Assembly (NCBI GenBank): GCA_963831295.1
Contig: CAWHPR010000003.1
Location: forward strand, 387,746-451,745
Origin: an uncultured Thermoleophilia bacterium
GTDB lineage: Bacteria > Actinomycetota > Thermoleophilia > UBA2241
DNA length: 64,000 bases
Reading direction: 5' to 3'
Made by a program: the position numbers and the translations under genes. Within the stretch, counting starts at the first letter, position 1, and every line of letters starts with the position of its first letter. Positions 15,226 to 44,384 of the stretch are shown here, one piece after another. Below the pieces are notes generated by a model. That model did no database searches and was not told the origin of the DNA. It saw nothing but the letters and a program-made list of their open reading frames with translations.

Positions 15226-15300
15226 GCACGCCGCCGTCCGTTCGGGCGACGTCGGGGGTCTTGGCGAAGCGCGCGCTCATCGGGCTCCCTCGGTCGATGC

Positions 15301-17864: not shown

Positions 17865-17867
17865 ACT

Positions 17868-19444
17868 GTGAGCGACGCACCCCCGCGCCCGCCGCACCCG
17901 GATCGTCGTCGTCGGCGGCGGGATGACGGGTCTCGGGGCGGCGCGCGCCCTCGAAGACGCGCGCGCCGCGGACCCCTCCGTCGACTGGGTGCTCTACGAG
18001 GCCGAACCGCGCCTCGGCGGCAAGGTCCAGACCGTGCGCCGCGACGGCTTCGTGGTCGAGGGCGGCCCCGACTCGGCCATCATCGAGAAGCCGTGGCCGA
18101 TCCAGATGGCACGCCGGCTCGACATCGGCGACCGCCTGCTCGACTCCAACGAGGACGTGCGCCGCAGCTTCGTCTTCGCGCGCGGCCGTCTTCACGAGCT
18201 GCCCGAGGGCATCATCCTCATGGTGCCGACGCGCATCGTGCCCTTCGCGCTCAGCGGCCTCATCAGCTGGCCCGGCAAGCTGCGCATGGGGATGGACCTG
18301 GTGCTGCCGCGCGGGGGCGAGGACGAAGACGAGAGCCTCGCGCGCTTCGTGCGGCGGAGGCTCGGCGACGAGGCGCTGGCGCGCATCGCCGAGCCCATCG
18401 TCGCCGGCATCCACGCCGGCGACCCCGAGACGATGAGCGTCGCCGCGACCTTCCCGATGTTCCGGCAGATGGAGCGCGAGCACCGCAGCCTGATCGTCGG
18501 GATGCTCGCGCGGCGCAAGGCGCGGGAGCGGGCGAAGGCGGCGGGGACGGCCGGGGGGCGGCGCCGGGGCGCCGAGCGGCGCTCCCGCGAGCGGGCGCGA
18601 GCCCTCGCTCGATACTTCTACTCGTTCGCCACCGGCCTCGGCGACCTGAGCGACGCGATGGCGGCCTCGCTGCCGGCCGAGCGGCTGCGCGCGGGCGTCT
18701 CGGTCGAGACGATGACGCGCCGCGGCGCCGGCTCCGGGGAGGGCGCCGACGGGCCGCGGTACTCGCTCGACCTCGGCGACGGTACCCGCGAGCTCGCCGA
18801 CGCCGTCGTGCTGGCCGGGCCGGCCTTCGCGAGCGGCGCTCTGCTGCGCGCGGTCGCGCCGCTCGCCGCCCGCGACCTCGAGTCGATCGAGTACGTGACG
18901 ACGGCGACCGTGTCGCTGGCCTTCAGGCGCGACCAGATCGCGCATCCCTTGCGCGGCTTCGGCTACGTCGTCCCGCGCGCCGAGGGTCGCGGCGTGATGG
19001 CGACCACGTGGAGCTCGAGCAAGTTCCCGGGCCGCGCGCCCGAGGGGCACGTCCTCCTGCGCAGCTTCCTCGGCCGGGCCGGGCTCGAGGCTGCGGCGCA
19101 GCTCGACGACGCGGAGATGACGACGCTCGTGCGCCGCGAGCTCCGCGACGTGCTCGGCATCGCCGCGGAGCCCGAGTTCGTCGAGATCTTCCGCTGGCCG
19201 CGCGGCATGCCGCAGTACCGGGTCGGCCACGCGGCCCTCGTCGACGGCATCGAGCGACAGCTCGCTGCCGTCGCCCGGCGTCGAGCTCGCCGGCGGCGCC
19301 TACCACGGCATCGGCATCGGCGACTGCCTCAGGGAGGGCGCCGCCGCGGCCGAGCGCGCCCTCGAGCACGTGCGCGGTCTGCCCGAGGACGAGCCGCCGT
19401 CGGCCCTGCCCGACGTGCCGGCGGCCGACGGCGTCGAGGACTGA
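17868..19444 (+). CDS. hemY: Protoporphyrinogen/coproporphyrinogen III oxidase (HemY/CgoX); frameshifts near 17885 and 19265
   Basis: RIVVVGGGMTGLGAARAL..LGGKVQTVRRDGFVVEGGPDS..GIHAGDP..(ORF 17923..19656), then PGVELAGGAYHGIGIGDCLREG..-stop at 19444. The only usable start is GTG 17868, in another frame. A C5 run lies between them. Confidence 0.85.
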
Positions 19445-22080: not shown

Positions 22081-22336
22081 GGCGATCCATCCCCCTTTGG
22101 TCACTGGACGGGAGGGCGCGCGGGCGCCGGCGGTCGCGCGAGAGAGCCGGCGCGAGGCGCGCCAAGAGTGGTCCCATAGCACCCCCTTCTCGCGCCCGAT
22201 CCGTGACGCCGCCGGTCCCCTCGTACGGCGACGATGGGCGCGCGAGGAGAGTCTTATCACTCGCCGCGGCGAGGGTACATAGTCACCGCCGTTTAGGTCC
22301 TATGCGGCCGGCTCTGGGAGCCGCGAGCCGCGCTTC

Positions 22337-22774
22337 TCAGTACTTGCCGAGCAGCTTCCAGATCCAGCGGTGCGGGGCGTGCATGCTGAAGCCGGGCTCG
22401 TTGTACATCACCGCGCAGTGCCCGGTGATGACCTTGAGGCCGCGCTCCTTCGCGGCGGCGAGGGCCTCCGGCGTGTCGGTCATCTGGTGGAGCCAGATCT
22501 CGGTGATGCCGGCGTCGGCCGCCTTGGCGACCCAGTCGGCGGTCTCCTCCTTGGGCAGCTCGAGGACGGCGGCGTCGACCTTCGCCGGCAGCGCGGCGAA
22601 GTCGGGCCAGGCCTGGTCGCCCTCGACCGTCTCGGCGCCGGGGTCGACGGCGTACACGGTCTTGCCGCGCTTCTTGAGGGCGTTGTAGGTGAGCTTGGGG
22701 AAGGCGCGCTTCTCGCCGTGGCCGACCACGGCGTAGCTCTCGCGCTCCCAGAAGCGTTCGCACTCGGAGGGCAT
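22337..22774 (-). CDS. CoA-binding domain protein (YccU-like)
   Basis: MPSECERFWERESYAVVGHGEKRAFPKLTYNALKKRGKTVYAVDP..LPAKVDAAVLELPKEE..AGITEIWLHQ. AAGGAG lies 6 nt upstream of ATG 22774. Confidence 0.75.
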   Translation of the reverse strand: MPSECERFWERESYAVVGHGEKRAFPKLTYNALKKRGKTVYAVDPGAETVEGDQAWPDFAALPAKVDAAVLELPKEETADWVAKAADAGITEIWLHQMTDTPEALAAAKERGLKVITGHCAVMYNEPGFSMHAPHRWIWKLLGKY

Positions 22775-22849
22775 CGCGTCTCCTTCTCGTCGGCGGGTGG
22801 GTCGTCGCGGTCCGGCGGTCTCGACAGGCAAGCGCCAGGGACGGGCGGG

Positions 22850-23773
22850 TCAGGCGCCGGCCGGCCCGTAGCAGGCGGCCGGCGCCAGGACGTCGGGGAA
22901 GCGGTCGCGCAGGGCGAGGCGCGTCTCGAAGCAGAGGTGGCAGGCGTCGGCGTAGCGCTCGCGCGCCGGCTTCGACGTCGTAGGCGCGGGCGAGCTCGAG
23001 CGGGCCGCCGCGGAGCAGCTCGCGCACGACCGGCAGGTCGTGCGGGTCGTAGCGCTCGACCACGGCGGCCAGGCCGTCGCGCCAGACGTTGCCGGCGCTG
23101 ATCCCCTGGCAGAGCTGCAGCTCGCCGTCGGGGCCGAGGTGGGCGCGCCCGGGCTCGACGAAGTCCTCGTGGGGGCACTCGGTGAAGGCGTCGGGCGGGC
23201 GGCCGTCGAGCTCGGCTCGCTCCGCGGCGAGCTCGACGGCCGCCCGCCCCTTGTACATGATCTCGCCGACGTCGCCGGTGCAGACGCCCGGCAGGTCGAG
23301 CATCGCTTCGGCGCCGACCTCGAGCAGGCCCATCGGCAGCTCGAGCTCGAGCGCCGCCTCGACGGCGTTGCGCAGCAGGCGCTCCTCGAGCTTGTCGCTC
23401 CTCGGCGAAGTACGCGTACGACGAGAGCGAGAGGTCGGCGACGCCGAGCTCCTTGAGCGGCGCGAGCCAGACCTTGGCGTCCTCGACCGACTCGGCCCAG
23501 TGGCAGTTGGTCACGACGCCGACGTCGAGGCCGCGCGCCCGTGCGTACCGCGCGGCCTCGAGCACGACCGGCCAGTACAGCGTGGGCTCGCCGCCCTCGA
23601 AGTAGACGGTGTCGATCGCGGGCACGTCGCGCGGTCTGGTCGATGGCGTCGCGGAGCTGCGCCAGCGTGAGCGTGCCCTCGGCCTCGGGCCCGCCGAAGA
23701 CGAAGCAGTGGTCGCAGGCGTAGATGCAGCGGTACGTGACGAGGAAGTGGATGGCGCTCAGCGACATCGGCAT
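22850..23773 (-). CDS. Radical SAM protein with SPASM/twitch-like C-terminal Cys motifs; 3 frameshifts
   Basis: MPMSLSAIHFLVTYRCIYACDHCFVFGGPE (CX3CX2C), then IDTVYFEGGEPTLYWP..GVVTNCHWA, then FTECPHEDFVEPGRAHLGPDGELQLCQGISAGNVW, then ERYADACHLCFETRLAL..-stop. These are pieces of ORFs 22850..23830, 22480..23625 and 22293..23333. Confidence 0.7.
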   Translation of the reverse strand: MPMSLSAIHFLVTYRCIYACDHCFVFGGPEAEGTLTLAQLRDAIDQTARRARDRHRLLRGRRAHAVLAGRARGRAVRTGARPRRRRRDQLPLGRVGRGRQGLARAAQGARRRRPLALVVRVLRRGATSSRSACCATPSRRRSSSSCRWACSRSAPKRCSTCRASAPATSARSCTRGGRPSSSPRSEPSSTAARPTPSPSAPTRTSSSPGAPTSAPTASCSSARGSAPATSGATAWPPWSSATTRTTCRSCASCSAAARSSSPAPTTSKPARERYADACHLCFETRLALRDRFPDVLAPAACYGPAGA

Positions 23774-23912
23774 GTGCGGCAGTATAGACGCGCCGGGCAG
23801 ACAAGGCAGGGAGCGCGTTCGTCGCGCCATGCCCTATCGGTCAGCCGGCGGGAGCGGCGGCGGGGCCGGCGGCGCGGCGCTCCGGTCGCACGATCCGGTT
23901 CAGACGCCGGCG

Positions 23913-25076
23913 CTACTTGTTGTGGCACTCCTCGCAGACGCCGCGGTCGTCGAGCCGGAGGAAGGCGTTCTTGGTGCCCGGCGGCACGGAGCCGTCGTCG
24001 CTGTCGGGCTCGGGATCGGTGGCGTCCGCGACGTCGGCGAAGCCGGTCATCACGGCGTCCGAGCCGTGGGCGCGATGGCAGGTGAGGCAGTCCATCCAGT
24101 CGTCGGTGCGCGCCTCGGGCGTCCACTCCCCGTACTCCTGGGCGAGCGGCAGCTGCAGGGCCTTGAGGCGGAGCGGACGAGCCCCGAGGTACTCGGCGAG
24201 AGGGACGTTCAAGGGGTGGCGGTAGCGCATGACGTCACCGAAGCCGTCCTCGGCGTCGTACCGGCTCGACGTGTCGAGATCGGCGCGGTGATACTCGGTG
24301 TGGCACGCCGCGCACCAGGCGCTGATCCCGCGCGTCCGGTCCTCGCCGGGAGCCTTGGCGTACATCGGCGTCGTGTAGTCGGGCTCGTACTCCGTCGATC
24401 TGCGCGGCGCCGGCGTCGTGCAGCAGCCAGCCCTCGTCCGGGTAGCCGGGCTCGTTGGAGATCACGAACGGGTCGGGGGCGTACTCGCCGGGGCCGGTCG
24501 CCACGTAGCCGCCCGACCTCGACGCCGTTCACGACGTCCTTGAGCAGGCGGTAGTTCGAGCTGCCGTGCACGTCGTGGCAGGAGCAGCAGGTCATGACGA
24601 CCGTCGCCCTCCCCGCCGCAGGGGCTCGCGAGCGTCGCCGTCACAGTTGTGGTGGTTGTCGCCGACGACGTGCGCGCCGAAGGCGCCTCCGTTGAGGGCG
24701 GCGCCGAGCGTCCCGTACCCGTCGGCCTCGTAGACACCGTCGTCGACGTTCGTCGCGGCGCCGGCCGCGTGCGCCGCCGTGACACGAGAAGCAGAACTGG
24801 CACGAGTCGTGTCTCGGTCCCGAGCAGGAGTGCGCGCCGTTGCTCGCCGGGTGTCGCTCCACGTGATGCTGCTGGCGGCCGTGTGCGCACGGTGGCACCC
24901 GGCGCAGGCGCCTGGGAGTCCATGGAGTAGCCGCCGTGGATCCCGAAGTTCGCGAGGGCAACGCCGGGGAGCAGGCACAGCACGCGGCGACGGCCGTCGA
25001 TGCCGAAGATGCGCAAGAGGGCCGGCGACGACCACCGCCGGCAGCCCGCGACAAGAGTACGCCCCAAGTACCCCAC
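23913..25076 (-). CDS. Hexahaem c-type cytochrome, OmcS-like, paralog A; at least 4 frameshifts in the N-terminal two thirds, start uncertain (GTG 25076 or TTG ~25008)
   Basis: Reconstructed as ..VLCLLPGVALANFGIHGGYSMDS..CAGCHRAHTAASSITWS..CQFCFSCHGGA..AGAATNVDDGVYEADGYGTLG..VMTCCSCHDVHGSSNYRLLKDVVNGVEVGGYV..EPGYPDEGWLLHDAGAAQI..ISAWCAACHTEYH..VMRYRHPLNV..DCLTCHRAHGSDAVMTGFADV..RGVCEECHNK-stop. It has six CXXCH motifs. Confidence 0.75.
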
Positions 25077-25299
25077 AGCCCCCGTGCTCCGTGCCCCGGC
25101 ACCGTGCCCCGGTACCGAGTGTACGGTCAGACGTTAGGGGCGTACGAGGAGGTTCGCAAGCATCTCGCGTGTACAAGTCTGTATACGGGGGCGCCGCCGA
25201 CGCGGTGCGGCACGACGAAGCCCGAAGCGCGGCCGCGGCACGCGAAGGGCGGCCGTCCGGGCGGGGCTCGAGCGGCACGGCGATGCGGGCAGCGAAGAC

Positions 25300-25328
25300 G
25301 GGAGGGCCGGGCATCGCCCGGCCCTCCC
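25300..25328 (-). terminator. Hairpin after OmcS-like gene B
   Basis: Perfect 13-bp stem gggagggccgggc / gcccggccctccc with a 3-nt loop, about 40 nt downstream of the stop at 25368. On the coding strand it is followed by gtcttcgc (poor U tract). Confidence 0.45.
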
Positions 25329-25367
25329 TCGTACACGCCTTCGGCGCGCCGTCGCTTGGCGCCGCCG

Positions 25368-26477
25368 CTACTTGTTGTGGCACTCCTCGCAGACACCGCG
25401 GTTGTCGAGCCGGAGGAACGCGTTCTTCGTGCCCGGCGGCACGGAGCCGTCGTCGCTGTCGGGCTCGGGGTCGGTGGCGTCGGCGACGTCGGCGAAGCCG
25501 CTCATCCGCCTTGTCCGAGCCGTGGGACTGGTGACAGGTGAGGCAGTCCAGCCAGTCGTTCGGGCCGGCCTCGAGGCGTCCAGTCTCCGTACTCCTGCGC
25601 GACGGGGAGCGTCAGGTTCGTGAGGTTGAGCGCGCGAGCGCCCGAGGTAGTCGCTGAGCGGGACGTTCACCGGGTGAGGGTAGCGCATGACGTCGCCGAG
25701 ACCGTCGTCGGCGTCGTACTGGCTCGGCCCACGTGCCGTGATATCTGGTGTGGCACGCCGCGCACCAGGCGCTGATGCCCTTGTCCGGGTCCTCATCGGG
25801 CGCCTTGGCGTACATCGGCGTCGTGTAGCTGGGCTCGTACGCCTCGATCTGCGCCGCACCGGCGTCGTGCAGCAGCCAGCCGTCCTCCGGGTAGCCGGGC
25901 TCGTTGGAGATCACGTACGGGTCGGGGAGGAAGTCGCCGCCGGCCGTCTCGACGTAGCCCCCGACGTCGACGCCGTTCACGACGTCCTTGAGCAGGCGGT
26001 AGTTGGAGCTGCCGTGCACGTCGTGGCAGGAGCCGCAGGTCATGACGATGTCGCCGTCACCGCCGTGGGCGGTCGACGGAGCTCCCGTCGTAGGTGTGGT
26101 GGTTCTCGCCGACGACGTCCTCGCTGAAGGCGCCGCTGTTGAGCTCAGCGCCGAGCGTGCCGTAGTCGCTAGCCTCGTAGACGCCGTCGAAGACGTTCGT
26201 CGCGGCGCCGGCAGCAGCGCTGCCGTGGCAGGTGAAGCAGAATTCGTAGAGCTCGGTCGCGGTCGACAGCAGGAGCGCGCTGCTGCTGCTCGCTCGCCGA
26301 GTTCGTCCACGTGATGCTGCTGGCGGCGGTGTGCGCGCGGTGGCAGCCGGCGCACGTGTGGGTGTCCATGGAGTAGCCGCCGTGGATGCCGAAGTTCGCA
26401 AGGGCGATGCCGGGGGTCAGGAGCAGCACGGACGCGCTGGCTGCCACTGCCAGTATCGAGTCGAGACGTTTCCGCAC
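25368..26477 (-). CDS. Hexahaem c-type cytochrome, OmcS-like, paralog B; at least 5 frameshifts
   Basis: GTG 26477 follows GAGGGGGAAAC. Reconstructed as VRKRLDSILAVAASASVLLLTPGIALANFGIHGGYSMDTHTCAGCHRAHTAASSITWT..LYEFCFTCHGSAAAGAATNVFDGVYEASDYGTLG..IVMTCGSCHDVHGSSNYRLLKDVVNGVDVGGYV..ISAWCAACHTRYH..VMRYPHPVNV..DCLTCHQSHGSDK..GFADVADATDPEPDSDDGSVPPGTKNAFLRLDNRGVCEECHNK-stop. Confidence 0.75.
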
Positions 26478-26594
26478 GTTTCCCCCTCGCACTTCTGCGG
26501 GTCTATCGGTGTTCATCTGGGCGGCGGTGCGATCACCACAAGACAAGCGACCAGCCGGAACTGCCAACACGGGCGCCCCTCGGCGCATGTGCGC

Positions 26595-26623
26595 ATTATA
26601 GGGTCACCACACTAGGGTGACAA
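26595..26623 (-). promoter_or_regulatory. Near-consensus sigma-70-type promoter (TTGTCA-N17-TATAAT) in front of OmcS-like gene B
   Basis: On the minus strand the sequence reads TTGTCA ccctagtgtggtgaccc TATAAT, starting 3 nt after the NHL gene's stop codon (26626-26628). It sits in a locally AT-richer patch and also contains GTCACC..GGTGAC dyad symmetry. The predicted leader to GTG 26477 is ~110 nt. Confidence 0.5.
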
Positions 26624-26625
26624 CA

Positions 26626-28191
26626 TTACGCGCCGCGGCCTCGCGTGTGCTCGCGACCCGACCGCCCCTTGTCGAGGAAGCGCTCCACGAACAGCCGCGC
26701 GTCGTACGCGTCCACTCCCAAAGCCCGAGCGGTCGAGGCCAGCGAGGGGGCCTGCGTGCACAGCGTCCCGGCGCGCCTGGCGACGGTGAGCAGCACCGCG
26801 GTCGGGTGCTCCACGCCGATCCGCTCCATGAGGTCCTTGGCATCGGACTCCGAGTGCGCCTGGGCGGTCAGGAGCGCGTCGAGAGACACCCCGCCGAGCT
26901 CGCGACCCTCGTAGCGAGGGGACTCCTCGGCGGGCACGATCCACATCCAGCGCCTTCTGGACCACGCCCAGCGCGTCCCGGCCTCCATGTACTCGATGAG
27001 GCCGGCGACGGTCATCGCCTCGAGGAAGTCCTCGGTGACCACGAAGCGGCGGCGGCGGAGCAGCAGCAGCAGCGGCAGGAGCAACAGACTCAGCAGAGGC
27101 CAGAGGACGGGCCCGTCGGATATCTCCGAGACGATGGACTGCGGTTCGGGCCACCCCCACACCTGCACCCGACCATTGACGCGATCGGTGAGGTAGATGA
27201 AGCCGCGCCGGTCGAGCGCGAGGTCGTTGGCGAAACGGAACTGGCCCGGGCCGGCGCCCGGGCCGCCGAAGCTGGCGATACGCTCGCCGGACGCGCGGTA
27301 GACGTCTGCCTGGTGCGCGAGCGCGTCGGCCACGTAGAGGCGGCCCTGGTCGTCCATGTCGAGACCGCGCGGGATCCCCGACGTGTTGATGACGCGATCG
27401 AAGTCTCCCTGCTCGCTGAAGACCTGGACCCGCTGGTTGTTGCTGTCGGCCACGTACACGACGCCCTTGCGTACGACGAGGCCGTTGGGGAACAGGAACC
27501 TGCCGGGCACGTCGGTCACCCGCTCGGCCTGCCCCGACCCCCCGAACCGCCGGATCTCGTCGCCCTCTCGATCGAACTCGATGACCTGGTGGAGGTCGCT
27601 GCGGCCCACGTCGCTCACCCAGAGGTTGTCGTCCTCGTCGAAGGCCAAGGCGAGGGGGCCCCACACTGCGGCCTCGTCGGCGTCGGCGGGTGCGACCTTG
27701 CGCAGGTACTCCCCGTCGGCCGAGAACACGTAGACGGCGCGGTGGCCGCGGTCGCTGACGAAGACCTCCCCGATCGAGTTCAGCTCGACGTAGACGGGCG
27801 TGGTGAGGGCGGTCCTGTCGCCGTCGGCGATCTCGGAGAACGAGAAACGGTAGTCGCCCTCGACGGTGTAGACGCGGACCGCTCCGGCGGCCGCGTCGGT
27901 GACGTACACGAGGTCGTCCGCGGACACGTCGACGCCGAGCGGCTGGGTGAGCGCGTCGCGGCCCCCAGGCCCGCTGATCGAGTACAGGTACTCAGGGGGC
28001 GAGACGATCCCTCCGGCGCCGAGGATCGGACCCGGGGCCGACGTGTCGCGGGAGCTGTTGTAGTAGTAGATGGCGCAGAGCGTCAGCACGAGCAGGAGGA
28101 GGGCGGCGAGAAGCGCGACGATCTTGCGCCGCGACGTCCTGCGCTCGGCCCTGCCGAACGGCCCCTGCTCGTGCTGTGCGTCGGTCGCCAT
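26626..28191 (-). CDS. NHL-repeat beta-propeller membrane protein (TM - NHL repeats - TM - ~170-aa cytoplasmic domain), intact
   Basis: The ATG at 28191 is preceded by GGAG. TM1 is KIVALLAALLLLVLTLCAIYYY. Repeated blades: LVYVTDAAAGAVRVY, VFVSDRGHRAVYVF, LWVSDVGRSDLHQVIEF, VYVADSNNQRVQVF, LYVADALAHQADVY, IYLTDRVNGRVQVW. TM2 is VLWPLLSLLLLPLLLLL, followed by RRRRFVVTEDFLEAM... Confidence 0.8.
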   Translation of the reverse strand: MATDAQHEQGPFGRAERRTSRRKIVALLAALLLLVLTLCAIYYYNSSRDTSAPGPILGAGGIVSPPEYLYSISGPGGRDALTQPLGVDVSADDLVYVTDAAAGAVRVYTVEGDYRFSFSEIADGDRTALTTPVYVELNSIGEVFVSDRGHRAVYVFSADGEYLRKVAPADADEAAVWGPLALAFDEDDNLWVSDVGRSDLHQVIEFDREGDEIRRFGGSGQAERVTDVPGRFLFPNGLVVRKGVVYVADSNNQRVQVFSEQGDFDRVINTSGIPRGLDMDDQGRLYVADALAHQADVYRASGERIASFGGPGAGPGQFRFANDLALDRRGFIYLTDRVNGRVQVWGWPEPQSIVSEISDGPVLWPLLSLLLLPLLLLLRRRRFVVTEDFLEAMTVAGLIEYMEAGTRWAWSRRRWMWIVPAEESPRYEGRELGGVSLDALLTAQAHSESDAKDLMERIGVEHPTAVLLTVARRAGTLCTQAPSLASTARALGVDAYDARLFVERFLDKGRSGREHTRGRGA

Positions 28192-28199
28192 GGGCTCCG

Positions 28200-29207
28200 T
28201 CAGTCCTCGGCCTGAAGGCGCTTGAGCGCGGCGACGGCCTCGGGCTCGTCGGGCCACAGGGCGAGCACCTTCTGCCAGGCCTCTTCAGCCGAGCCGGGGT
28301 CGCCCGTACGCAGGTAGAGCTTGGCGACCAGCTTGGCGGCGGCCGGGCTGCCGGGGTCGAGGGCGCGGGCCACTCGGGCCTCGACGAGCGCGGCCGAAGC
28401 GTCGGTCTTGGCCAGCCGTCTCGCGGCGGCGAAGCGCTCCTCGAACGGCCCCAGCCGGACGAGCTCATCGCCCGGCTCCGTGATCCCCTCGGGAGCGTTG
28501 TCGGCCGAGGTGCGGAAGTGCTCGGCTGCTCCGGCGACGTCGTCGTCGGCGAGCAGCAGCAGACCGTAGTCGTAGTTGGCCTCGGGCATCAGCGGGTCGA
28601 ACATGAGCGCCCTCTCGAGGTGGAGACGCTGGTTGGCGACCGAGGCGCGTTCGCGATATGCGACCGCGAGCGCGTAGTGCGTGTCCGCGGCGGTGCGGCG
28701 GATCTTCAGCGCTTCGTGCAGGTACTTGACCGCCTCTCTGTACTTCTCGCGTTCGATGAGCGTCACGCCGAGCTGATGGTAGGCCACGGCGAGGCGCTGG
28801 TCGAGGCCGGCATACTGCCCCGTCCCGATCTCACCGACGACGCGGCGCCAGTACTCCTCGGCGCTCTCCCACTCGCCCTCGTACATGGCGATGAGGCCGA
28901 GACCCGTGAGCGCGTCGGGGTTGTTCTCGTCGAGTTCGAGCACGACGCCGAACTGCTCGATGGCGTCGTCGACCTGGCCGGCCGCGGCGTAGGCCTCGGC
29001 GAGCGTCAGCCGCAAGCTGAGGTCGTTGGGGTTCTCCTCGATGGCGGCGATGAGGTCTGTGATGACTCTGGACGCCGCCGCCGATTCGCGCTCCCGCGAC
29101 TGTTCCGTGAGGACGGTGTAGGCGAGATACCCGATGGCGACCACGGCCAGCAGCACGACCACTTTGAGGGCCACGTCGATCCACCGCGTGTCCCGCAGGG
29201 CCCTCAC
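28200..29207 (-). CDS. Membrane-anchored TPR-repeat protein, intact
   Basis: 335-aa ORF with N-terminal TM WIDVALKVVVLLAVVAIGYLAYTVL, followed by TPR-like helices (LAEAYAAAGQVDDAIEQFGVVLELDENNPDAL.., AVAYHQLGVTLIEREKYREAVKYLHEALKI..). Confidence 0.8.
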   Translation of the reverse strand: MRALRDTRWIDVALKVVVLLAVVAIGYLAYTVLTEQSRERESAAASRVITDLIAAIEENPNDLSLRLTLAEAYAAAGQVDDAIEQFGVVLELDENNPDALTGLGLIAMYEGEWESAEEYWRRVVGEIGTGQYAGLDQRLAVAYHQLGVTLIEREKYREAVKYLHEALKIRRTAADTHYALAVAYRERASVANQRLHLERALMFDPLMPEANYDYGLLLLADDDVAGAAEHFRTSADNAPEGITEPGDELVRLGPFEERFAAARRLAKTDASAALVEARVARALDPGSPAAAKLVAKLYLRTGDPGSAEEAWQKVLALWPDEPEAVAALKRLQAED

Positions 29208-29253
29208 GCGTCGCTCGTCACGTCGGCAAAGGCATGACCCGTCGCGAGGGCGA

Positions 29254-30852
29254 TCACAGGTGCGGCCCGGTGTGACAGCGCTTGCACAGGTCGGATCCCG
29301 GCCACGGCGCGATCTGGTCGCCGCGGGAGTCCGCGGCGCCGTGGCAGTCGTAGCAGATGCGGATGTCGTGCCCCCCGATCTCGGCGGACTGCTGACCGGC
29401 GTGCTGTACCCGCGCCGCCGTCAGCTTGAGATGGCAGTCGTCGCAGCGGTGCGGCCTGCCGACGTGTTCTTCGACATCGAAGTGCGCGGCGTGCTCGGCG
29501 AGCTTCGCCACCTTGATCTCACTGGGCCGTCTGCGCATCTCGGGATGACAGTTCACGCAGTTCTCGGCCCGCAACTCCTGACTGCGGTCGGGATCGTGGT
29601 GGCACTCCTGACACCAGTTGCGGTCCGAGTGGCACACGCCGCAGTCGTCGGGCATGAAGCCGCTGGACGTGTGCGACGCGAGCCAGGTCGTCGGGTGCGG
29701 CATGACAGTCGGGTGGCACCGGCTGCACGACTCGTTCGTGTGGCAGATCGAGCACGTGGCTTCTCCGCTGAGAAGGAACGGCTCGCCGTGCTCGGCCATC
29801 CACGCGGCGGTCTGGTGGTCGTCGGGGATCACCTCTTTGCTGTACGAGCCGTCCGGCAGCCGCTTCTCGCTGCGGTGACACTCCGCGCAGAACGCCGAAG
29901 CGTGGCAGGTCGTGCAGTCGAGCAGGTCCTCGGCGCCCGGCTTGCGGTGACTGCTCGCGATGAACGCCGCCGTGTGATCGGCCGGCACGAGCTCGAAGCC
30001 CGGCGGATGACACGCCCCGCACTCGTCGGGAGCGGCCTCGCCGTCCTCGGTGTGCTGAACGCCGTGGCAGCGATAGCACGACGACATGTCGGGGCGGTCG
30101 GTGGCGCCGGCGCGGTGCGGGAACCTCTCGTGGCACACCTCGCAATCGTAGTCGCGTTCGAAGTGCACGGCGTGCGTGAAGAGCAGGCCGTCCCCCTCGC
30201 TCCTGTCGATGTCGGGGTGGCAGAAGACGCACTGCCCCATCGTGACAGGCCCGTCCACACTGATCGTGAGGGGCGGCCGCGACTCGGGCAGGGGGACGTT
30301 GCGCAGATAGCCCGGTGCGGCAAGCGGCGTGTCGACCCCCTGTTCCCTGTGGCAGGCATCGCAGTGCGCGCGCGCCTCGTGGCACATCATGCAGCCGTTC
30401 GAGCCTCCGCGCTCCACGGCGCCGGCGTGCGGCTCCTCGGTCCAGTCCTCGCTGTGATCCGCGGGCCTGAGCTCGAAGGCCTGCGTGTGGCAGGTGTCGC
30501 ACGAGTCGGCGGCCATGACGCCGTCGGAACCGTGAACGAGCCCGTGACAGGCGAAGCACGTCTCCATCGGCGGCACGTGCGTTGCGCCGCCCTCGTGCGC
30601 CGAACGCACGTGGCACACGCTGCAGTCGACGGTGGCGTGCGCATCGTGTGCGAAGACGAGGCCGGGGTCGCGAGACTCGGCGATGCGCTGGTGACAGGGA
30701 CTGCACGACTCGATGCGCACCGGGCCGGTCAGATCGATCTCGGTGGGCTGTGTCGCGCCCACGCCCGGCTGCAGCGTGCCGGCCAGCACGACGACGACGA
30801 CGGCGATGGCGGTCGCCGCTGTCAGGTACGCGTGTCGGCGGGTCGGTCGCAT
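29254..30852 (-). CDS. Multihaem c-type cytochrome with 20 CXXCH motifs, N-terminal membrane anchor/signal, intact
   Basis: 532-aa ORF. I count 20 CXXCH motifs: CSPCH, CSVCH, CFACH, CDTCH, CMMCH, CDACH, CVFCH, CEVCH, CYRCH, CGACH, CTTCH, CAECH, CSICH, CSRCH, CGVCH, CQECH, CVNCH, CDDCH, CYDCH, CKRCH. The N-terminus is MRPTRRHAYLTAATAIAVVVVVLAG. Confidence 0.9.
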   Translation of the reverse strand: MRPTRRHAYLTAATAIAVVVVVLAGTLQPGVGATQPTEIDLTGPVRIESCSPCHQRIAESRDPGLVFAHDAHATVDCSVCHVRSAHEGGATHVPPMETCFACHGLVHGSDGVMAADSCDTCHTQAFELRPADHSEDWTEEPHAGAVERGGSNGCMMCHEARAHCDACHREQGVDTPLAAPGYLRNVPLPESRPPLTISVDGPVTMGQCVFCHPDIDRSEGDGLLFTHAVHFERDYDCEVCHERFPHRAGATDRPDMSSCYRCHGVQHTEDGEAAPDECGACHPPGFELVPADHTAAFIASSHRKPGAEDLLDCTTCHASAFCAECHRSEKRLPDGSYSKEVIPDDHQTAAWMAEHGEPFLLSGEATCSICHTNESCSRCHPTVMPHPTTWLASHTSSGFMPDDCGVCHSDRNWCQECHHDPDRSQELRAENCVNCHPEMRRRPSEIKVAKLAEHAAHFDVEEHVGRPHRCDDCHLKLTAARVQHAGQQSAEIGGHDIRICYDCHGAADSRGDQIAPWPGSDLCKRCHTGPHL

Positions 30853-30874
30853 ACGTCCCTGCGGGCGGCCCGGT

Positions 30875-31745
30875 CTATCCGCCGAACAGTCCGGCGATGG
30901 CGCCCCCGACCCACTTGAGGGTCGAGTAGAGCGGGTTGGCCTCGAGCACGTCGCGCTTGCCGTGGATCAACTCGGTGTACTCGAGGAAGCCCTCGTTGAC
31001 GTCACCCTTGTGACAGGCGCCGCACGTGTCCGCCAGCCGGCTCTGGTGAACAGGCGACCGGGGATCGGACGACGGGTAGACGTCATGGTAGCCGTGGCAG
31101 TCCCAGCACGCCGGTGCGTCTGTTGCTCCCCGACGGTACGCGCGCCCGTGGTAGTAGTCGTCGTAGCTGTTCCACTCGTCTTCGTGGCACCTGCCGCAGA
31201 CCTCCCAGCCGTCGGCGTGCAGGGCGCGGCGGCCTTCTGGGCTGTCCGCGAGCGCGACGACGCCGTGGCTGCCGTGGCAGTCACCGCAGAGCGGGAACTC
31301 GGCTCCTTCGGGGACGGCGCCGGCATGGTCCTCGACCTTGCCCCGGTGGACGCTGGCCCAGTATGCGCGGCTCTCTTGCTGATGGCAGTTCTTGCAGGCC
31401 AGGCGTGAAACGTGGTCCCAGTTCTCGGACGGCTGGGTGTGCGGCGCCGTGAAGGCGAAGTCGATGTGACAGCCGATGCACTGCACGTCCGCGTGCGGGC
31501 TGGCCGCGAGCTCGTCGGTGTCGACGTAGTAGCTCACGATCTCTCCGCCCTCCGGCCGGACCGAGGTCCTCGTCGTCATGGCAGACGAGGCATCCGGCCC
31601 GCGACGCCGTGGGCAGCGTGAAGTCGACGTCGTATCCGCCGACCTGAGGATCGGTGTCACCGCTCTCGGCGAGCGCCGGGGTCGCCGACGAGAGCGCCAT
31701 CACGCACGCCAGGGCGACGAGCAGGAGCATCTTGCGGGTCGTCAT
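30875..31745 (-). CDS. Heptahaem c-type cytochrome with signal peptide and C-terminal hydrophobic anchor (CbcA-like); 1 frameshift near 31560
   Basis: MTTRKMLLLVALACVMALSSATPALAES..CLVCH (ORF 31281..31745) joins ORF 30875..31660 (CIGCH, CKNCH, CGDCH, CGRCH, CWDCH, CGACH), ending ..LKWVGGAIAGLFGG-stop. ATGA overlap with the cytochrome b stop. Confidence 0.8.
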
Positions 31746-32761
31746 TCGGTGTCACCTGCAGACGGCCCGCTCACGTGCGTCGACTGCATCGGCGTCAGGA
31801 CCCCCACCTTCTGACGCGAGTCTTGGTGTGGTGGCTGGACGTGAGTCGGAGCGGGTGCCGGGTGCGACTGCTCCTCAGGGCGGCTGTCGCCGGGCGTTCC
31901 TTGCGACTCCTGCGACGCGCGCCGGGACGGTCGCGAGCGCTTCAGGATGCCGAAGAAGTCACGGACCGCGGGGAAGTCCTCAGTCACGCAGAGGTACGCA
32001 TGGACGGTCGTGAGGATGATGAACAGCCACGTGATCGCGTAGTGGAGGGAGCGCGCGTACCATCCGGCGAGGTCGGTCGAGCCCACGAGCGCGCCAAGCC
32101 ACCAGCCGAGCAGCAGGTCGCGCGGGCTGTAGCCGAAGATGAACGGCGTGACGACGAGCGAGAATCCCGTGAGCGCCTGCAGGGTCATGAGCGGCACGAA
32201 CAGGATGTACGTGGCCTTCTGCATGACGTTGTACTTGCAGAGATGCGGTTTCGAGCTCTTGATGAACACGTAGTAGAGGGCGCACTTGGGCGCCGAGCAG
32301 ACATCCTGCTTCGTGATGGCGAACTCCTTGTAGTCACGCCGCTTCGAGAAGAACGCGCACCATATGCGCCACGCGAAGTTGACCGTGACGACGATCATGA
32401 ACACGTAGTGGACGCCGCGCATCGCGCTGCGGCCGCCGTCGAAGAACGGGAAGCGGATGTAGAGACCGGTGAATCCCAGCGCGAACATCGAGAACACGTG
32501 CTGGAAGTGCAGGAACTTGTTGAGGAGTGGGATCGGCGGCCCGTCGTGGTCGGGCCACTGCTTGTTCACGTACCGGGCCTTGAGGCGCCCGGTGAGCAGG
32601 TTGCCGACGAGGTGCGCCGACAACGCGGCGACGACGAGCACGTACAGCGTGGTGAAGCCGACATCGAGCCAGACGTTCAGTTCTGACAGTGGTATTACTG
32701 ACCCCCCCTCGGGTGTCCGCCCATAATACCGCGTCCGGAGTGCTCCAGGGCCCCGACGCAC
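31742..32761 (-). CDS. Membrane b-type cytochrome (PhsC / formate-dehydrogenase gamma / Ni-Fe hydrogenase cytochrome b family; CbcB-like)
   Basis: Polytopic protein with conserved His residues in TM helices (LNKFLHFQHVFSMFALGFTGLYIRFPFF, RGVHYVFMIVVTVNFAWRIW, SLHYAITWLFIILTTVHAY). The listed GTG 32761 lies inside a strong hairpin. An alternative start is an ATA codon at 32695, which sits 6 nt after GAGGGGGGG. Confidence 0.75.
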   Translation of the reverse strand: MRRGPGALRTRYYGRTPEGGSVIPLSELNVWLDVGFTTLYVLVVAALSAHLVGNLLTGRLKARYVNKQWPDHDGPPIPLLNKFLHFQHVFSMFALGFTGLYIRFPFFDGGRSAMRGVHYVFMIVVTVNFAWRIWCAFFSKRRDYKEFAITKQDVCSAPKCALYYVFIKSSKPHLCKYNVMQKATYILFVPLMTLQALTGFSLVVTPFIFGYSPRDLLLGWWLGALVGSTDLAGWYARSLHYAITWLFIILTTVHAYLCVTEDFPAVRDFFGILKRSRPSRRASQESQGTPGDSRPEEQSHPAPAPTHVQPPHQDSRQKVGVLTPMQSTHVSGPSAGDTE

Positions 32762-32788
32762 TCGTCAGCACGCTTCGGGGCCCTGGAG
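32743..32788. other. Perfect 14-bp inverted repeat (hairpin) between the S9 peptidase gene and the cytochrome cluster
   Basis: ctccagggccccga - 18 nt - tcggggccctggag. It lies 78 nt downstream of the S9 peptidase stop and is followed on the minus strand by TATTAT (32728-32723). Confidence 0.5.
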
Positions 32789-32865
32789 CAGCGCTGCGCC
32801 CACGCGCCGACGGGCGTGTGCCTTCTGCAACGCTCGCCACTCTGAAGGGTTACAGGCGAGCGAGG

Positions 32866-34961: not shown

Positions 34962-35066
34962 GAAGCCCTCCTCGCAGGTGGACGCCGGGGATCGCCGGAA
35001 CGGGAAGAGCCTACCGCCCTGGGGCCTGGAGGAGTACCATGAATGCAGCGTCTCCAGGGGAGAGTG

Positions 35067-44257: not shown

Positions 44258-44384
44258 CGGACCTCCGGTTCTTGGGCGACCCGTCATGGGCGCCGGGTGG
44301 GTGCGGTGAGTGCGATCGTGCGTGGGCACGGGTGCGGAGTCTACGACCGGGTCAACGGACGCAGGCTCGGGTGGGGTCGGCCGG

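Follow-up and report, generated by a model that had tools for sequence, protein, structure and literature searches.

How could respiratory electrons reach acceptors outside a cell that has no outer membrane? This question is raised by a locus of an uncultured Thermoleophilia bacterium, contained in a 64-kb stretch of DNA that was analysed as a whole (the window). A sequence-only reading had described a nine-gene cluster rich in c-type cytochromes and had proposed that it encodes an electron conduit from the quinone pool to the outside. Our analysis supports this proposal by homology to OmcS, an architecture shared with CbcBA, synteny and the monoderm lineage, whereas the outward direction is something that we infer. 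We consider it fairly likely that the locus is the Thermoleophilia version of a multihaem cluster of anaerobic Actinomycetota, by which respiratory electrons would pass from the quinone pool to acceptors outside the monoderm cell.

Organization of the cluster

Nine co-directional genes, whose content was assigned with Pfam, span positions 22337-32761 of the minus strand (Table 1), as previously described. A six-frame scan detected 40 CXXCH motifs in the window. Thirty-nine of them map to positions 23936-31592 of the minus strand, distributed over four cytochrome genes in the numbers reported earlier (7 + 20 + 6 + 6), and the sole other motif is at 14529. The cytochrome b and 7-haem genes share an ATGA overlap, the ATG of the latter lying on the stop codon of the former, and gaps of 22, 46 and 8 nt separate the 7-haem, 20-haem, TPR and NHL genes. 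The gap between the NHL gene and hexA measures 148 nt, that between hexA and hexB 291-315 nt, varying with the hexB start codon chosen (GTG at 25052 or 25076), and that between hexB and the radical SAM gene 139 nt. These are the three long gaps of the sequence-only reading, which had put one of them at 290 nt; a further gap of 75 nt, between the radical SAM and CoA-binding genes, had escaped its list. In agreement with the same reading, no beta-barrel or porin gene is present in the cluster interval, where all long coding ORFs are accounted for. Elsewhere in the window, the hemE-hemH-hemY order noted earlier is found at 15836-19441 of the plus strand.

Table 1. Features of the cluster, with positions in the window
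Feature	Position	Strand	Evidence
Dihaem cytochrome b, putative menaquinol-oxidising membrane subunit	31742..32761	-	PF01292
7-haem c-type cytochrome with Sec signal peptide	30875..31745	-	7 CXXCH; Cytochrome_C7, c3 Pfam matches
20-haem c-type cytochrome	29254..30852	-	20 CXXCH
Membrane-anchored TPR protein	28200..29207	-	TPR Pfam matches
NHL-repeat beta-propeller membrane protein	26626..28191	-	PF01436
hexA promoter TTGTCA-17-TATAAT	26595..26623	-	Near-consensus sigma-70-type
hexA, hexahaem cytochrome A	25368..26477	-	6 CXXCH; OmcS-like profile
Terminator-/attenuator-like hairpin 3' of hexA	25300..25328	-	Fold of 25230-25372
hexB, hexahaem cytochrome B	23913..25052	-	6 CXXCH; hexA paralogue
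Radical SAM protein	22850..23773	-	PF04055
CoA_binding_2 protein	22337..22774	-	PF13380

Lineage and conservation

All related loci come from MAGs of Actinomycetota, the nearest being from Thermoleophilia, with 93% nucleotide identity. The organism belongs to class Thermoleophilia of the monoderm Actinomycetota, which bears out the previous hint of a high-GC Gram-positive-like organism. Synteny, a check that had been proposed for related genomes, was assessed in the 51 related loci whose upstream sequence extends over 8.5 kb or more, and the core is kept: the 20-haem, TPR and NHL genes adjoin the OmcS-like gene in 45 of them. The TPR and NHL proteins, the only non-haem proteins of this core, are both detectable beside the OmcS-like gene in 50 of these 51 loci. 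One relative (L001) has every gene of the cluster intact. The cytochrome b and 7-haem head is retained from Thermoleophilia to Anaerosomatales, where the order is cytb-7haem-MHC-20haem-TPR-NHL, and the cytochrome b orthologue is intact and directly upstream of the 7-haem gene in both L001 and the Anaerosomatales locus L079.

The last two genes are a different matter. The radical SAM protein has a CxxxCxxC motif, lacks a SPASM domain and gave only far sub-threshold NCBIfam matches; its gene follows the hexahaem genes in L001, L002, L003, L005 and L008 and in no other related locus. The CoA-binding protein (E 1e-17 for its Pfam match, 96% identical to the L001 orthologue) is missing from the Coriobacteriia loci. 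Their earlier inclusion in the cluster is doubtful because they are neighbours within the Thermoleophilia clade only, conserved there and outside the conserved core.

Frameshifts and selection

Several genes of the cluster are interrupted by frameshifts: the 7-haem gene has one, hexA six, hexB about 7-10 small indels and the radical SAM gene three (+1 insertions). The +1 insertions of hexA lie near 26284, 26079, 25732, 25641, 25574 and 25510 and spread its six CXXCH motifs over three frames. The 20-haem, TPR, NHL, cytochrome b and CoA-binding genes have no frameshifts. The previous reading had warned that real frameshifts would mean a decayed locus; on that view, hexA, hexB and the radical SAM and 7-haem genes would be pseudogenes. 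We find this very improbable, even though at least 17 small indels fall within 22.8-26.5 kb and one more at about 31562, hexA and hexB, with about 6 indels per kb, are hit more densely than other regions, and a truncated 7-haem product stands in the deposited record. The indels are nearly all single-base insertions, and they also affect housekeeping hemE (2) and hemY (1), an S9 peptidase (2) and an aldehyde dehydrogenase. The close relative L003 carries an error-rich patch elsewhere, in its hem genes, and the tandem repeat formed by hexA and its paralogue hexB (89% mean column identity at the DNA level) is hard to polish. Moreover, the frame-projected cluster genes have zero in-frame stops, projected hexA and hexB keep six CXXCH each, and hexB, like the other affected genes, has intact orthologues (L001, L002 and L005). 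The cluster is under purifying selection, with dN/dS values against the L001 orthologues of 0.19 for hexA and 0.29 for hexB, similar to hemH (0.21), in a cluster range of 0.19-0.40. Hence, the frameshifts are probably assembly errors rather than signs of decay.

A proposed path from the membrane to the wall

The cytochrome b matches PF01292 (Ni_hydr_CYTB, E 2e-16) and has 4-5 hydrophobic helices containing His, its start being uncertain between 32761 and about 32650. In the adjacent 7-haem gene, the single +1 frameshift near 31562 places one of the seven CXXCH in a different frame; the deposited product (P0211) is truncated to 234 aa, and the L001 orthologue is intact at 293 aa. A C-terminal anchor had been attributed to this cytochrome, but its tail is only weakly hydrophobic, Gly-rich, with a mean hydropathy of 0.8-1.1. 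The two proteins share the published architecture of CbcBA, which favours the quinol-oxidising module suggested earlier. This pair of a 4-5-TM dihaem cytochrome b and a secreted 7-haem cytochrome c would oxidise menaquinol.

The 7-haem cytochrome also shows weak sub-threshold matches to NapC/NirT and NrfB-like proteins, as might be expected if the cluster served to reduce a soluble substrate (nitrite, sulfite, hydroxylamine or tetrathionate type). Such a system is extremely improbable here, as the cluster has no catalytic subunit, Pfam and NCBIfam searches gave zero matches to NrfA, HAO or MccA, and the NrfA matches in the PDB are insignificant (E 0.23-0.26). In addition, all haem motifs of the cluster are of the standard type, with no CXXCK among them, and its His suffice for all-bis-His ligation. 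The possibility of a nitrite, sulfite or hydroxylamine reductase, which the sequence-only reading had named as a potential refutation of its own proposal, is effectively refuted at the sequence level by Pfam, NCBIfam, PDB and haem-motif data, none of which carries a signature of these enzymes.

The intact 20-haem ORF encodes an N-terminal membrane anchor or signal sequence, c7/ActA-like modules and 47 His. Its best PDB matches are the ActA subunit of ACIII (6lod, E 1.3e-5) and PpcA-type c7 cytochromes, and its family is narrow, comprising 86 matches that are nearly all 515-545 aa long and, when named, mostly from Actinomycetota. This membrane-anchored cytochrome would take electrons from the membrane across the wall zone, and the two Sec-secreted hexahaems would form the distal element.

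The TPR protein has one N-terminal TM helix (residues 16-34) and a TPR domain predicted to lie outside, with many TPR Pfam matches and a sub-threshold match to the apocytochrome-chaperone TPR domain of CcmH/CycH; it is a putative chaperone or scaffold. In the NHL protein (E 2.5e-24), TM helices span residues 24-42 and 360-378, with the propeller between them, and the C-terminal part, a cytoplasmic domain of some 140 aa, has no family match. Since the OmcS and OmcE clusters of Geobacter also have beta-propeller proteins, the TPR and NHL proteins may, by analogy, assist assembly as chaperones or scaffolds. Geobacter makes use of an outer-membrane pore, whereas the cluster described here has none, and a beta-barrel is unneeded because there is no outer membrane. 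The combination, in a monoderm, of a membrane quinol oxidase, a 20-haem cytochrome, helper proteins and OmcS relatives therefore probably serves electron export without such a pore.

Hexahaem cytochromes and OmcS

The tandem hexahaems had been called OmcS-like, and this designation is well founded. A family profile built from 48 sequences and searched against PDB sequences matched OmcS (6ef8) almost over its full length with E 9.9e-11, profile positions 39-364 corresponding to OmcS residues 7-369 and five haem motifs being aligned. Next came two further filament cytochromes, namely 9yuq (E 3.5e-5), whose PDB entry has 16 chains, and OmcE (7tfs, E 1.3e-3). In a Foldseek search with an AF2 model (pLDDT 80, pTM 0.78, the N-terminal 55 residues of low confidence), OmcS was the sole real PDB match (probability 0.96, TM 0.40/0.37), with 16-17% identity in the structural alignment and a TM of 0.40 that is below the usual same-fold threshold. 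Exactly 12 His are invariant across 116 family members, six in CXXCH and six others, which is enough for six bis-His haems. The invariant His of CxxCHxxH aligns with OmcS His16, and an invariant His is equivalent to the inter-subunit ligand of OmcS. Corrected HexA has 366 aa, six CXXCH and 17 His; its signal peptide ends in ALA|NF, giving the mature N-terminus NFGIHGGY, comparable to FHSGGV at the N-terminus of OmcS. Judged from these profile and fold matches, hexA and hexB are distant OmcS homologues, and the homology is real beyond size and haem count.

As the sequence-only reading had noticed, a near-consensus promoter precedes hexA in the 148-nt gap. It has 11 of 12 consensus matches around a 17-nt spacer, only 0.2 sites of this kind are expected from shuffled versions of the region, and it is kept in the two nearest relatives, L003 and L008. 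Transcripts starting from it would have a 5' UTR of about 110 nt ahead of the GTG start at 26477, with GGAGGGGG just before it. Roughly 40 nt past the hexA stop, the hairpin consists of a perfect 13-bp G+C stem, then GUCUUCG. Its counterparts 3' of hexA in L001, L002 and L005 have stems of 15-17 bp with pairing-preserving base changes, and folding of these regions gave z-scores between -3.6 and -5.5. This layout is as expected of an abundant structural subunit.

HexA, the putative major filament subunit, would probably polymerise in the fashion of OmcS, so that a His from one subunit would ligate a haem in its neighbour; that hexahaem filaments are formed we rate slightly below an even chance. 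The conduit could also be outward without a nanowire, the hexahaems remaining monomeric as wall-associated terminal reductases or diffusible shuttles, a reading modelled on OcwA and the Smh cytochromes of Gram-positive Firmicutes. Among the numerous multihaem cytochromes, few are known to polymerise, and the structural match to OmcS is moderate. OmcS filaments are about 4 nm wide. The appendages of Parvivirga hydrogeniphila (Anaerosomatales), with a reported width of 0.8-0.9 nm, misfit this value. However, we regard monomeric hexahaems as rather unlikely, given that the top three PDB matches of the profile are all filament-forming and OcwA gave no match even at E 10, that the inter-subunit ligand is invariant, that hexA has the layout of a structural subunit, and that a beta-propeller protein accompanies them, just as in the clusters of OmcS and OmcE. 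Neither a sortase signal nor an SLH or CWB2 domain, any of which would serve as a wall anchor, was found on the hexahaems.

Direction of electron flow

The same parts might also work inwards, which we judge distinctly unlikely. The hexahaems would then be c3-like, with extracytoplasmic dehydrogenases as their electron source or else a solid one such as a cathode, Fe(II) or a syntrophic partner. By way of the 20-haem and 7-haem cytochromes, the electrons would arrive at cytochrome b, which would reduce menaquinone; alternatively, the system would supply a hydrogenase or formate dehydrogenase making H2 or formate. Most relatives in Coriobacteriia do encode a formate-dehydrogenase-like enzyme or else a [NiFe] hydrogenase directly upstream of the OmcS-like gene. 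The former, present in 36 of the 51 loci, is a TAT-exported selenocysteine molybdopterin enzyme (motif ARIUHSSTVAG) accompanied by an FeS subunit; in a second cluster type, the small and large hydrogenase subunits take its place. Moreover, PF01292 cytochromes b are bidirectional, those of hydrogenases and formate dehydrogenases reducing quinone and CbcB oxidising quinol, and the relative Coriobacteriaceae bacterium EMTCatB1 (L024) comes from an electromethanogenic biocathode. Nevertheless, no such dehydrogenase is present in the cluster, nor was any found by tblastn across the window, and 39 haems plus an OmcS homologue far exceed the needs of a dehydrogenase-to-quinone link. Both directions may be used, direction being beyond what sequence can fix.

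Characterized relatives are in line with electron export. The cultured P. hydrogeniphila depends on Fe(III) reduction, uses H2 or formate to reduce ferrihydrite, forms appendages that are induced by ferrihydrite, and carries a multihaem plus molybdopterin cluster. A Coriobacteriales MAG with an OmcS homologue, reported in 2020, was the fourth most abundant genome in an anode biofilm, and HGW-Actinobacteria are predicted iron reducers. The earlier impression that the gene set had not been described as a unit needs qualification, as this homologue and the multihaem clusters of Anaerosomatales had already been noted, so that the set is not wholly undescribed.

The hexahaem cytochromes and their relation to OmcS

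Two tandem genes of the cluster, hexA and hexB, encode the hexahaem cytochromes that the sequence-only reading had described as OmcS-like. After correction of the reading frames, their products comprise 366 aa and about 374 aa, each with six CXXCH motifs, and the signal peptide, as judged by eye, ends at ALA|NF. A single-sequence phmmer search of a stitched hexahaem protein against PDB sequences returned nothing relevant. A profile built from 48 family members matched OmcS (6ef8_A) over nearly its full length with an E-value of 9.9e-11 (profile positions 39-364, OmcS residues 7-369), and haem motifs 1-5 align between the two. The next and weaker matches were both to filament-forming cytochromes, namely 9yuq (E 3.5e-5), a filament of the D. 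soudanensis type deposited with 16 chains, and OmcE 7tfs (E 1.3e-3).

A first AlphaFold2 model, from an alignment of 48 sequences, was too poor (pLDDT 66), with OmcS as top match at E 0.04. The model was therefore redone with 116 sequences and, built without haems, reached a pLDDT of 80.3 and a pTM of 0.78. Among 350,542 PDB chains, OmcS was its sole meaningful Foldseek match (E 1.4e-3, probability 0.96). The agreement of this haem-free model with OmcS is moderate (TM 0.40/0.37, rmsd 11.7, 16-17% identity in the structural alignment). Exactly twelve His residues are invariant across the 116 sequences, six within CXXCH motifs and six others, which is enough for six bis-His haems. One of them, H48 (the second His of CxxCHxxH), aligns with OmcS His16, which we take to be the ligand of the neighbouring subunit's haem in the OmcS filament. 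From this conservation, all haems of the family are predicted to be bis-His, including one served by the equivalent of the inter-subunit ligand. Altogether, profile and model argue that the hexahaem cytochromes are genuine but distant homologues of OmcS. That they form true filaments is slightly less likely than not, close to an even chance.

The family is large. A word-indexed search retrieved more than 900 matches from Coriobacteriia, Anaerosomatales and Actinomycetota MAGs, which carry the names 'cytochrome c3 family protein' or 'hypothetical'. Searched exhaustively with the profile, the family amounts to 1,509 clusters at 50% identity for an E-value limit of 1e-3 and to 240 for a limit of 1e-30.

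Gene content and transcription signals

A six-frame scan placed 39 of the 40 CXXCH motifs of the 64-kb window on the minus strand between 23936 and 31592, as 6+6+20+7, in agreement with the count obtained earlier from the sequence alone. Since the G+C content of the window is about 71%, coding frames were assigned from third-position G+C. Pfam agreed on all nine of the consecutive, co-directional minus-strand genes that had been proposed, and every coding ORF in 22337-32761 could be assigned, none of them to a porin-like beta-barrel, whose absence had also been noted. From the cytochrome b gene to the CoA_binding_2 gene, the junctions consist of an ATGA overlap and gaps of 22, 46, 8, 148, about 291-315, 139 and 75 nt. 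The overlap, the short gaps and the three longer ones (139, 148 and ~290 nt) were as first listed, and the 75-nt gap before the CoA_binding_2 gene has to be added. The gene upstream of cytochrome b encodes an S9 peptidase, and no regulator gene is adjacent.

Features of the cluster, with the evidence for each
Feature	Position	Strand	Evidence
Cytochrome b	31742-32761	-	PF01292, E 2e-16
7-haem cytochrome	30875-31745	-	Pfam; 7 CXXCH; start overlaps cytochrome b stop
20-haem cytochrome	29254-30852	-	Pfam
TPR protein	28200-29207	-	Pfam
NHL beta-propeller	26626-28191	-	Pfam
Hexahaem cytochrome hexA	25368-26477	-	Pfam; 6 CXXCH
Hexahaem cytochrome hexB	23913-~25052	-	Pfam; 6 CXXCH
Radical SAM protein	22850-23773	-	Pfam
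CoA_binding_2 protein	22337-22774	-	Pfam
Near-consensus promoter TTGTCA-17-TATAAT	26623-26595	-	11/12 matches, in 148-nt gap
Perfect 13-bp G+C hairpin, then GUCUUCG	25328-25300	-	~40 nt past hexA stop

The near-consensus promoter previously seen in one of the longer gaps withstood scrutiny, as only 0.2 sites this good are expected in shuffled sequence, and it is retained in the two closest relatives. Downstream of it lie the ribosome-binding site GGAGGGGG and the GTG start codon of hexA at 26477. The hairpin on the 3' side recurs after hexA in a related JGI metagenome contig (L001) and in two further related loci (L002 and L005), with base changes that preserve the pairing. A strong promoter, a hairpin and read-through into a paralogue would be the layout of an abundant structural subunit, an arrangement that presumably resembles that of omcS-omcT. 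Riboswitches control extracellular electron transfer genes in Geobacter. For the 5' UTR of hexA, Rfam gave nothing at gathering score within the window, and over 22000-33200 it returned only two chance-level matches (E above 0.9).

Integrity of the locus

Several genes of the cluster are interrupted in the assembly. There are six +1 insertions in hexA, about seven to ten small indels in hexB, three frameshifting events in the radical SAM gene and one in the 7-haem gene, and almost all of these indels are single-base insertions. If the breaks were real, the locus would be a decayed one, as the sequence-only reading had cautioned. However, the alignment of proteins from a related intact contig to the window revealed that housekeeping genes are broken as well (two breaks in hemE, one in hemY and two in the S9 peptidase gene), and an aldehyde dehydrogenase gene at 49403-50946 is split in two. 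When projected on the orthologous frame, hexA and hexB contain zero stop codons, and each copy retains six CXXCH motifs and 17 His residues. Their dN/dS values against the L001 orthologues (0.19 for hexA and 0.29 for hexB, with 0.21 for hemH) are lower than those of the intact 20-haem (0.35) and NHL (0.40) genes. Moreover, several related assemblies carry intact orthologues of the frameshifted genes, and the closest relative, L003, has an indel-rich patch of its own located elsewhere, in the hem genes. Pseudogene decay is unlikely in view of the broken housekeeping genes, the predominance of single-base insertions, the lack of stops and the dN/dS values after projection, and the intact orthologues. 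These four lines of evidence indicate that the frameshifts are probably assembly errors. The truncated 234-aa product of the 7-haem gene (P0211) already stands in the public entry for the source contig, and the errors therefore belong to the deposited assembly.

The indels of the window, mostly +1, fall in patches (15836-19441, 22850-26477, ~31562, 32875-34973 and 49403-50946), a pattern that looks like the uneven consensus quality of a long-read metagenome assembly. hexA and hexB are repeated in tandem, with a mean column identity of 89% in their DNA, and this may explain the local density of errors. The tandem could itself be suspected of being an assembly artefact, a possibility ruled out by the orthologous pairs in L001, L002, L005 and L008. 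In L003, the stretch 10001-12160, compared with 22842-26477 of the window, holds a single hexahaem gene whose body corresponds to hexA and is directly followed by sequence found downstream of hexB. This single copy reflects either a recombination deletion between the nearly identical 3' ends or an assembly collapse.

Other proteins of the cluster

The cytochrome b has 4-5 hydrophobic helices carrying His. The C-terminal anchor once attributed to the 7-haem cytochrome finds no support in hydropathy, as the last 14-19 residues form a Gly-rich, just weakly hydrophobic tail with a mean hydropathy of 0.8-1.1, against a transmembrane threshold of 1.6; this tail is kept in L001. The 20-haem protein has an N-terminal anchor and 47 His residues. 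It belongs to a narrow family of uniform length (86 matches). In the PDB it matched best the ActA subunit of alternative complex III and PpcA-type c7 cytochromes. The TPR protein has one N-terminal helix. In the NHL protein, the propeller lies between two helices and precedes a C-terminal domain of ~140 residues, predicted to be cytoplasmic. This domain (26626-27060, RRRRFVVTEDFLEAM...) matched nothing in Pfam or NCBIfam, is kept in L001 and appears faintly PIN-like by eye.

Multihaem cytochromes could also belong to a nitrite, sulfite or hydroxylamine reductase, the alternative raised when the cluster was first read. Such an enzyme was rejected. The CXXCK, CX3CH and CX4CH motifs of catalytic haems are absent from the cluster proteins, none of these matched the NrfA, HAO or MccA families of Pfam and NCBIfam, and in the PDB search NrfA appeared at just E 0.23. 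A porin-cytochrome conduit of the MtrCAB/Pcc type was not found in the cluster either, as there is no barrel and the DmsE/MtrC models of NCBIfam scored 14-30 bits against cut-offs of about 190-209. Because hem genes lie nearby, the radical SAM protein was considered as an AhbD/NirJ-type haem enzyme, a reading without support, with NCBIfam scores of about 18-28 bits against cut-offs of at least 500. A second radical SAM domain, fused to DUF2064, is encoded at the window edge (1-1653, minus strand); its similarity to the N-terminus of the radical SAM protein in the cluster is weak (38% over 61 residues).

Lineage and conservation in relatives

Among species-representative genomes, those nearest to the window (L003, L008, L002, L004 and L005) are without exception labelled as Thermoleophilia MAGs, with nucleotide identities of about 93% for L003 and 85-94% for L008. 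As a class, Thermoleophilia belongs to the monoderm Actinomycetota, so the high-GC Gram-positive-like lineage hinted at by the window's gene content is borne out. In L001 (78-90% nucleotide identity) the whole cluster is intact and its order unchanged. L001 differs from the window in an additional HtrA protease gene, which precedes the radical SAM gene, and in the lack of the M14 peptidase gene. The HtrA (trypsin-PDZ) gene, located between hexB and the radical SAM gene, is also found in L005 and is absent from the window. The M14 gene (20035-22299, minus strand) encodes a secreted zinc-carboxypeptidase-domain protein of ~680-750 aa between the CoA_binding_2 gene and hemY, and represents an insertion relative to L001 and L003.

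Hexahaem relatives are encoded in 409 stretches of the species-representative genome collection, and synteny was counted over the 51 retrieved loci whose upstream flank reaches at least 8.5 kb. The 20-haem, TPR and NHL genes precede the OmcS-like gene in 45 of these 51 loci, and TPR and NHL do so in five of the remaining six. The radical SAM and CoA_binding_2 genes follow the hexahaem genes in five Thermoleophilia-like loci only and are therefore excluded from the conserved system. Conservation of the gene set as originally delimited thus extends to its 20-haem/TPR/NHL/OmcS-like core and not to these two genes. In one Anaerosomatales locus, L079, the order reads FKBP-type PPIase, cytochrome b, 7-haem, a 413-aa multihaem cytochrome, 20-haem, TPR and NHL. 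The PPIase gene of L079 (8571-9005), 146 nt upstream of cytochrome b, brings to mind OscH, a PPIase chaperone encoded in the osc operon of Geobacter.

The NHL gene and the OmcS-like gene are separated in 36 of the 51 loci by two genes, which encode a TAT-exported molybdopterin enzyme and its FeS subunit. The former contains an in-frame TGA within ARIUHSSTVAG, typical of selenocysteine formate dehydrogenases. An example of this pair is found in L024 (5635-9947), and others occur in L006, L012, L021 and further loci of Coriobacteriia/Anaerosomatales. A second type of cluster, often in the same genomes, carries at that position the small (TAT-exported) and large subunits of a [NiFe] hydrogenase. 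Hydrogenase-type loci include L075 (6403-9933), L064 (6402-9974) and L059 (6495-9975), and their OmcS-like gene is more divergent, with about 40% identity; downstream in L059 is a 13-haem, 1013-aa cytochrome with FG-GAP repeats. On the 3' side of the OmcS-like gene, Coriobacteriia loci (L024 11089-18384; L075 11428-17251) encode two proteins with no Pfam match (~440-500 aa and ~270 aa), followed by a second NHL propeller and a CWB2 cell-wall-binding-repeat protein of ~1,220-1,260 aa. The Thermoleophilia version is without the no-Pfam pair, the second NHL and the CWB2 protein.

The presence of either a dehydrogenase or a hydrogenase gene at the NHL/OmcS-like junction suggests, therefore, that a wire module (20-haem, TPR, NHL and OmcS-like) combines with different redox partners. 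Such modularity fits the physiology of cultured Anaerosomatales, which use H2 or formate only and in which no quinones were detected; one of them, an obligate Fe(III) reducer, forms appendages that ferrihydrite induces (PMC9686372). No such formate-dehydrogenase-like enzyme was found anywhere in the 64-kb window, whose only candidate donor module is the pair of cytochrome b and 7-haem cytochrome, similar to CbcBA.

Comparison with known systems

The closest counterparts of the hexahaem proteins are OmcS and OmcT of Geobacter sulfurreducens. Both systems share a hexahaem subunit of ~370-400 aa with full-length homology at the profile level, predicted all-bis-His haems, a conserved His aligned with the inter-subunit ligand and a tandem paralogue comparable to omcS-omcT. 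They differ in that the host of the window is a monoderm actinobacterium and in the low identity of the structural alignment. Known nanowire clusters of the Geobacter group combine the subunit with multihaem cytochromes, beta-propellers and a large beta-barrel or channel, plus a PPIase for OmcS, according to Shen et al. 2025, as summarised in PMC13194489, and bioRxiv 10.1101/2025.10.22.684050. As in the osc operon, the window's cluster encodes further large multihaem cytochromes and a beta-propeller protein. Unlike the osc operon, it has neither the channel-like OscEFG nor a beta-barrel, nor a PPIase, and it encodes a TM-anchored TPR protein instead. The propeller differs as well, with a TM helix on either side in place of a lipoprotein or periplasmic form; all Osc proteins were compared by description. 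The absence of OscEFG and of a barrel is expected in a monoderm host, and the lack of the barrel and PPIase, together with the added TPR protein, is plausible as a monoderm adaptation.

The layout of the window also resembles the minimal one of OmcE clusters, with two multihaem cytochromes, one propeller, the TPR protein and the subunit, but OmcE is a tetrahaem and the window's subunit a hexahaem protein. The OmcE clusters of Desulfuromonadia comprise two multihaem cytochromes, two beta-propeller lipoproteins and the nanowire subunit, always with a large beta-barrel; OmcE homologues have been reported from five diderm phyla, Actinomycetota not among them (bioRxiv 10.1101/2025.10.22.684050). 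CbcBA of Geobacter, an inner-membrane quinol oxidase, consists of a hydrogenase-type 4-TM dihaem cytochrome b and a separate seven-haem c subunit (bioRxiv 10.1101/2021.04.15.440034). In the window, a PF01292 cytochrome b with 4-5 TM helices adjoins a separate 7-haem gene, a likeness of architecture to a system known to us by description. Differences from CbcBA are that the cytochrome b gene comes before the c gene, that a sigma-54/BccR regulator was not seen and that a C-terminal anchor on the 7-haem cytochrome is doubtful.

Multihaem electron transfer across a monoderm envelope is shared with OcwA of Thermincola potens and OmhA/SmhA-C of Carboxydothermus ferrireducens. These cytochromes have been described as wall-associated or secreted monomers. 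No sequence relation to these Firmicutes cytochromes was detectable, and OcwA gave no match to the family profile even at E 10. In sulfate reducers, NHL propellers are co-encoded and co-expressed with large extracellular multihaem cytochromes (Desulfovibrio ferrophilus DFE_448-465; PMC5815863) and lie beside large multihaem cytochromes in SEEP-SRB operons (cited in PMC12246660). These propellers have been proposed to stabilise the complex. Compared with the window, these hosts have a diderm envelope, their cytochromes are of other families, and an OmcS-type subunit has not been reported from them.

Within Actinomycetota, an anode-enriched 'S27 Coriobacteriales' MAG was found to encode one OmcS homologue with 28% identity and six CXXCH (Arbour et al. 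2020, PMC7399161), a multihaem and molybdopterin cluster of Parvivirga hydrogeniphila has been listed (MCL4079376-90; Khomyakova et al. 2022, PMC9686372), and iron reduction was predicted for multihaem-rich HGW-Actinobacteria (Hernsdorf et al. 2017, PMC5520028). None of these three papers describes the cluster as a unit, nor its TPR and NHL genes. The Parvivirga cluster, we infer, probably corresponds to the molybdopterin-type (type-1) cluster. Clusters of Coriobacteriia/Anaerosomatales have the same families and order as the window, cytb-7haem-(MHC)-20haem-TPR-NHL-...-OmcS-like, and insert the selenocysteine formate-dehydrogenase-like enzyme or the [NiFe] hydrogenase before the OmcS-like gene; the Thermoleophilia version has a tandem duplicate instead. 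The sequence-only reading was aware of no description of this exact gene set as a unit. In the literature consulted we found no account of the cytb-7haem-20haem-TPR-NHL-OmcS-like unit, of its modular partners or of its presence in Thermoleophilia (Shen et al. 2025 may cover part of this), but an actinobacterial OmcS homologue and multihaem clusters were already published. The system is not categorically new, since OmcS-type cytochromes and propeller clusters are known and one actinobacterial homologue had been noted.

A putative electron conduit in monoderm Actinomycetota

The original interpretation of the cluster, an electron conduit from the quinone pool to the outside, is supported as far as sequence analysis allows. 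We lean towards an outward electron conduit of a monoderm actinobacterium, with the OmcS homologue as its distal element, as the best explanation. The main alternative is that the same hardware runs inward, or serves as the partner of a dehydrogenase. The modularity of partners leaves room for it, with a c3-like role of the hexahaem proteins and inward electron flow. A broader proposal, which we put forward tentatively and regard as somewhat improbable, is that monoderm Actinomycetota (Thermoleophilia and Coriobacteriia/Anaerosomatales) build true OmcS-type nanowires without an outer-membrane secretion pore, on a membrane platform with swappable partner modules. The base of the filament would be formed at the cytoplasmic membrane by the two-TM NHL propeller, the TM-anchored TPR protein and a wall-crossing 20-haem cytochrome. 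This wire module would plug into an interchangeable donor or acceptor, namely the CbcBA-like quinol oxidase here and the formate-dehydrogenase-like enzyme or [NiFe] hydrogenase in relatives.

To our knowledge, structural proof of cytochrome nanowires is limited to diderm bacteria and archaea, and the assembly of Geobacter nanowires is thought to depend on outer-membrane channel proteins. If the proposal is true, Gram-positive-type bacteria would have their first cytochrome-nanowire system, and with it a quinone-independent route from H2 or formate to minerals. The partner genes of relatives suggest a direct link of H2 or formate to minerals or electrodes. The cluster offers a minimal, barrel-free setting for the study of nanowire assembly and Gram-positive extracellular respiration. 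With one TPR protein and one NHL propeller, the conserved cluster of the OmcS homologue has a small and clearly bounded set of accessory proteins, which makes it a simple system for addressing the minimal needs of filament assembly and the passage of electrons through a thick Gram-positive wall. P. hydrogeniphila, a cultured family-level relative in which we presume the cluster to be present, makes the hypothesis experimentally testable. Members of the hexahaem family turn up commonly in metagenomes from the subsurface, sediments, soils and electrode biofilms, and Actinomycetota may therefore contribute more than currently assumed to iron cycling, corrosion and interspecies electron transfer.

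Genomic surroundings

The flanks of the cluster encode an HdrA/MvhD-like protein, FeS proteins, a CCG-domain protein, a Prismane/CODH-family protein, a Crp/Fnr-type regulator and hemE-hemH-hemY, a content that would suit an anaerobe. The Prismane/CO-dehydrogenase-family protein (42397-44283, minus strand; PF03063, E 5e-113) is encoded near the Crp/Fnr-type regulator (46226-46975, minus strand), which fits an anaerobic lifestyle. A run of redox genes at 7575-15261 (minus strand) includes an HdrA-like flavoprotein fused to an MvhD/FlpD domain with several 4Fe-4S clusters, together with ferredoxin-domain, GltD/pyridine-nucleotide-disulfide-oxidoreductase-like and CCG-domain (HdrB-like) proteins. 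The CCG-domain protein carries the one remaining CXXCH motif of the window, at 14529.
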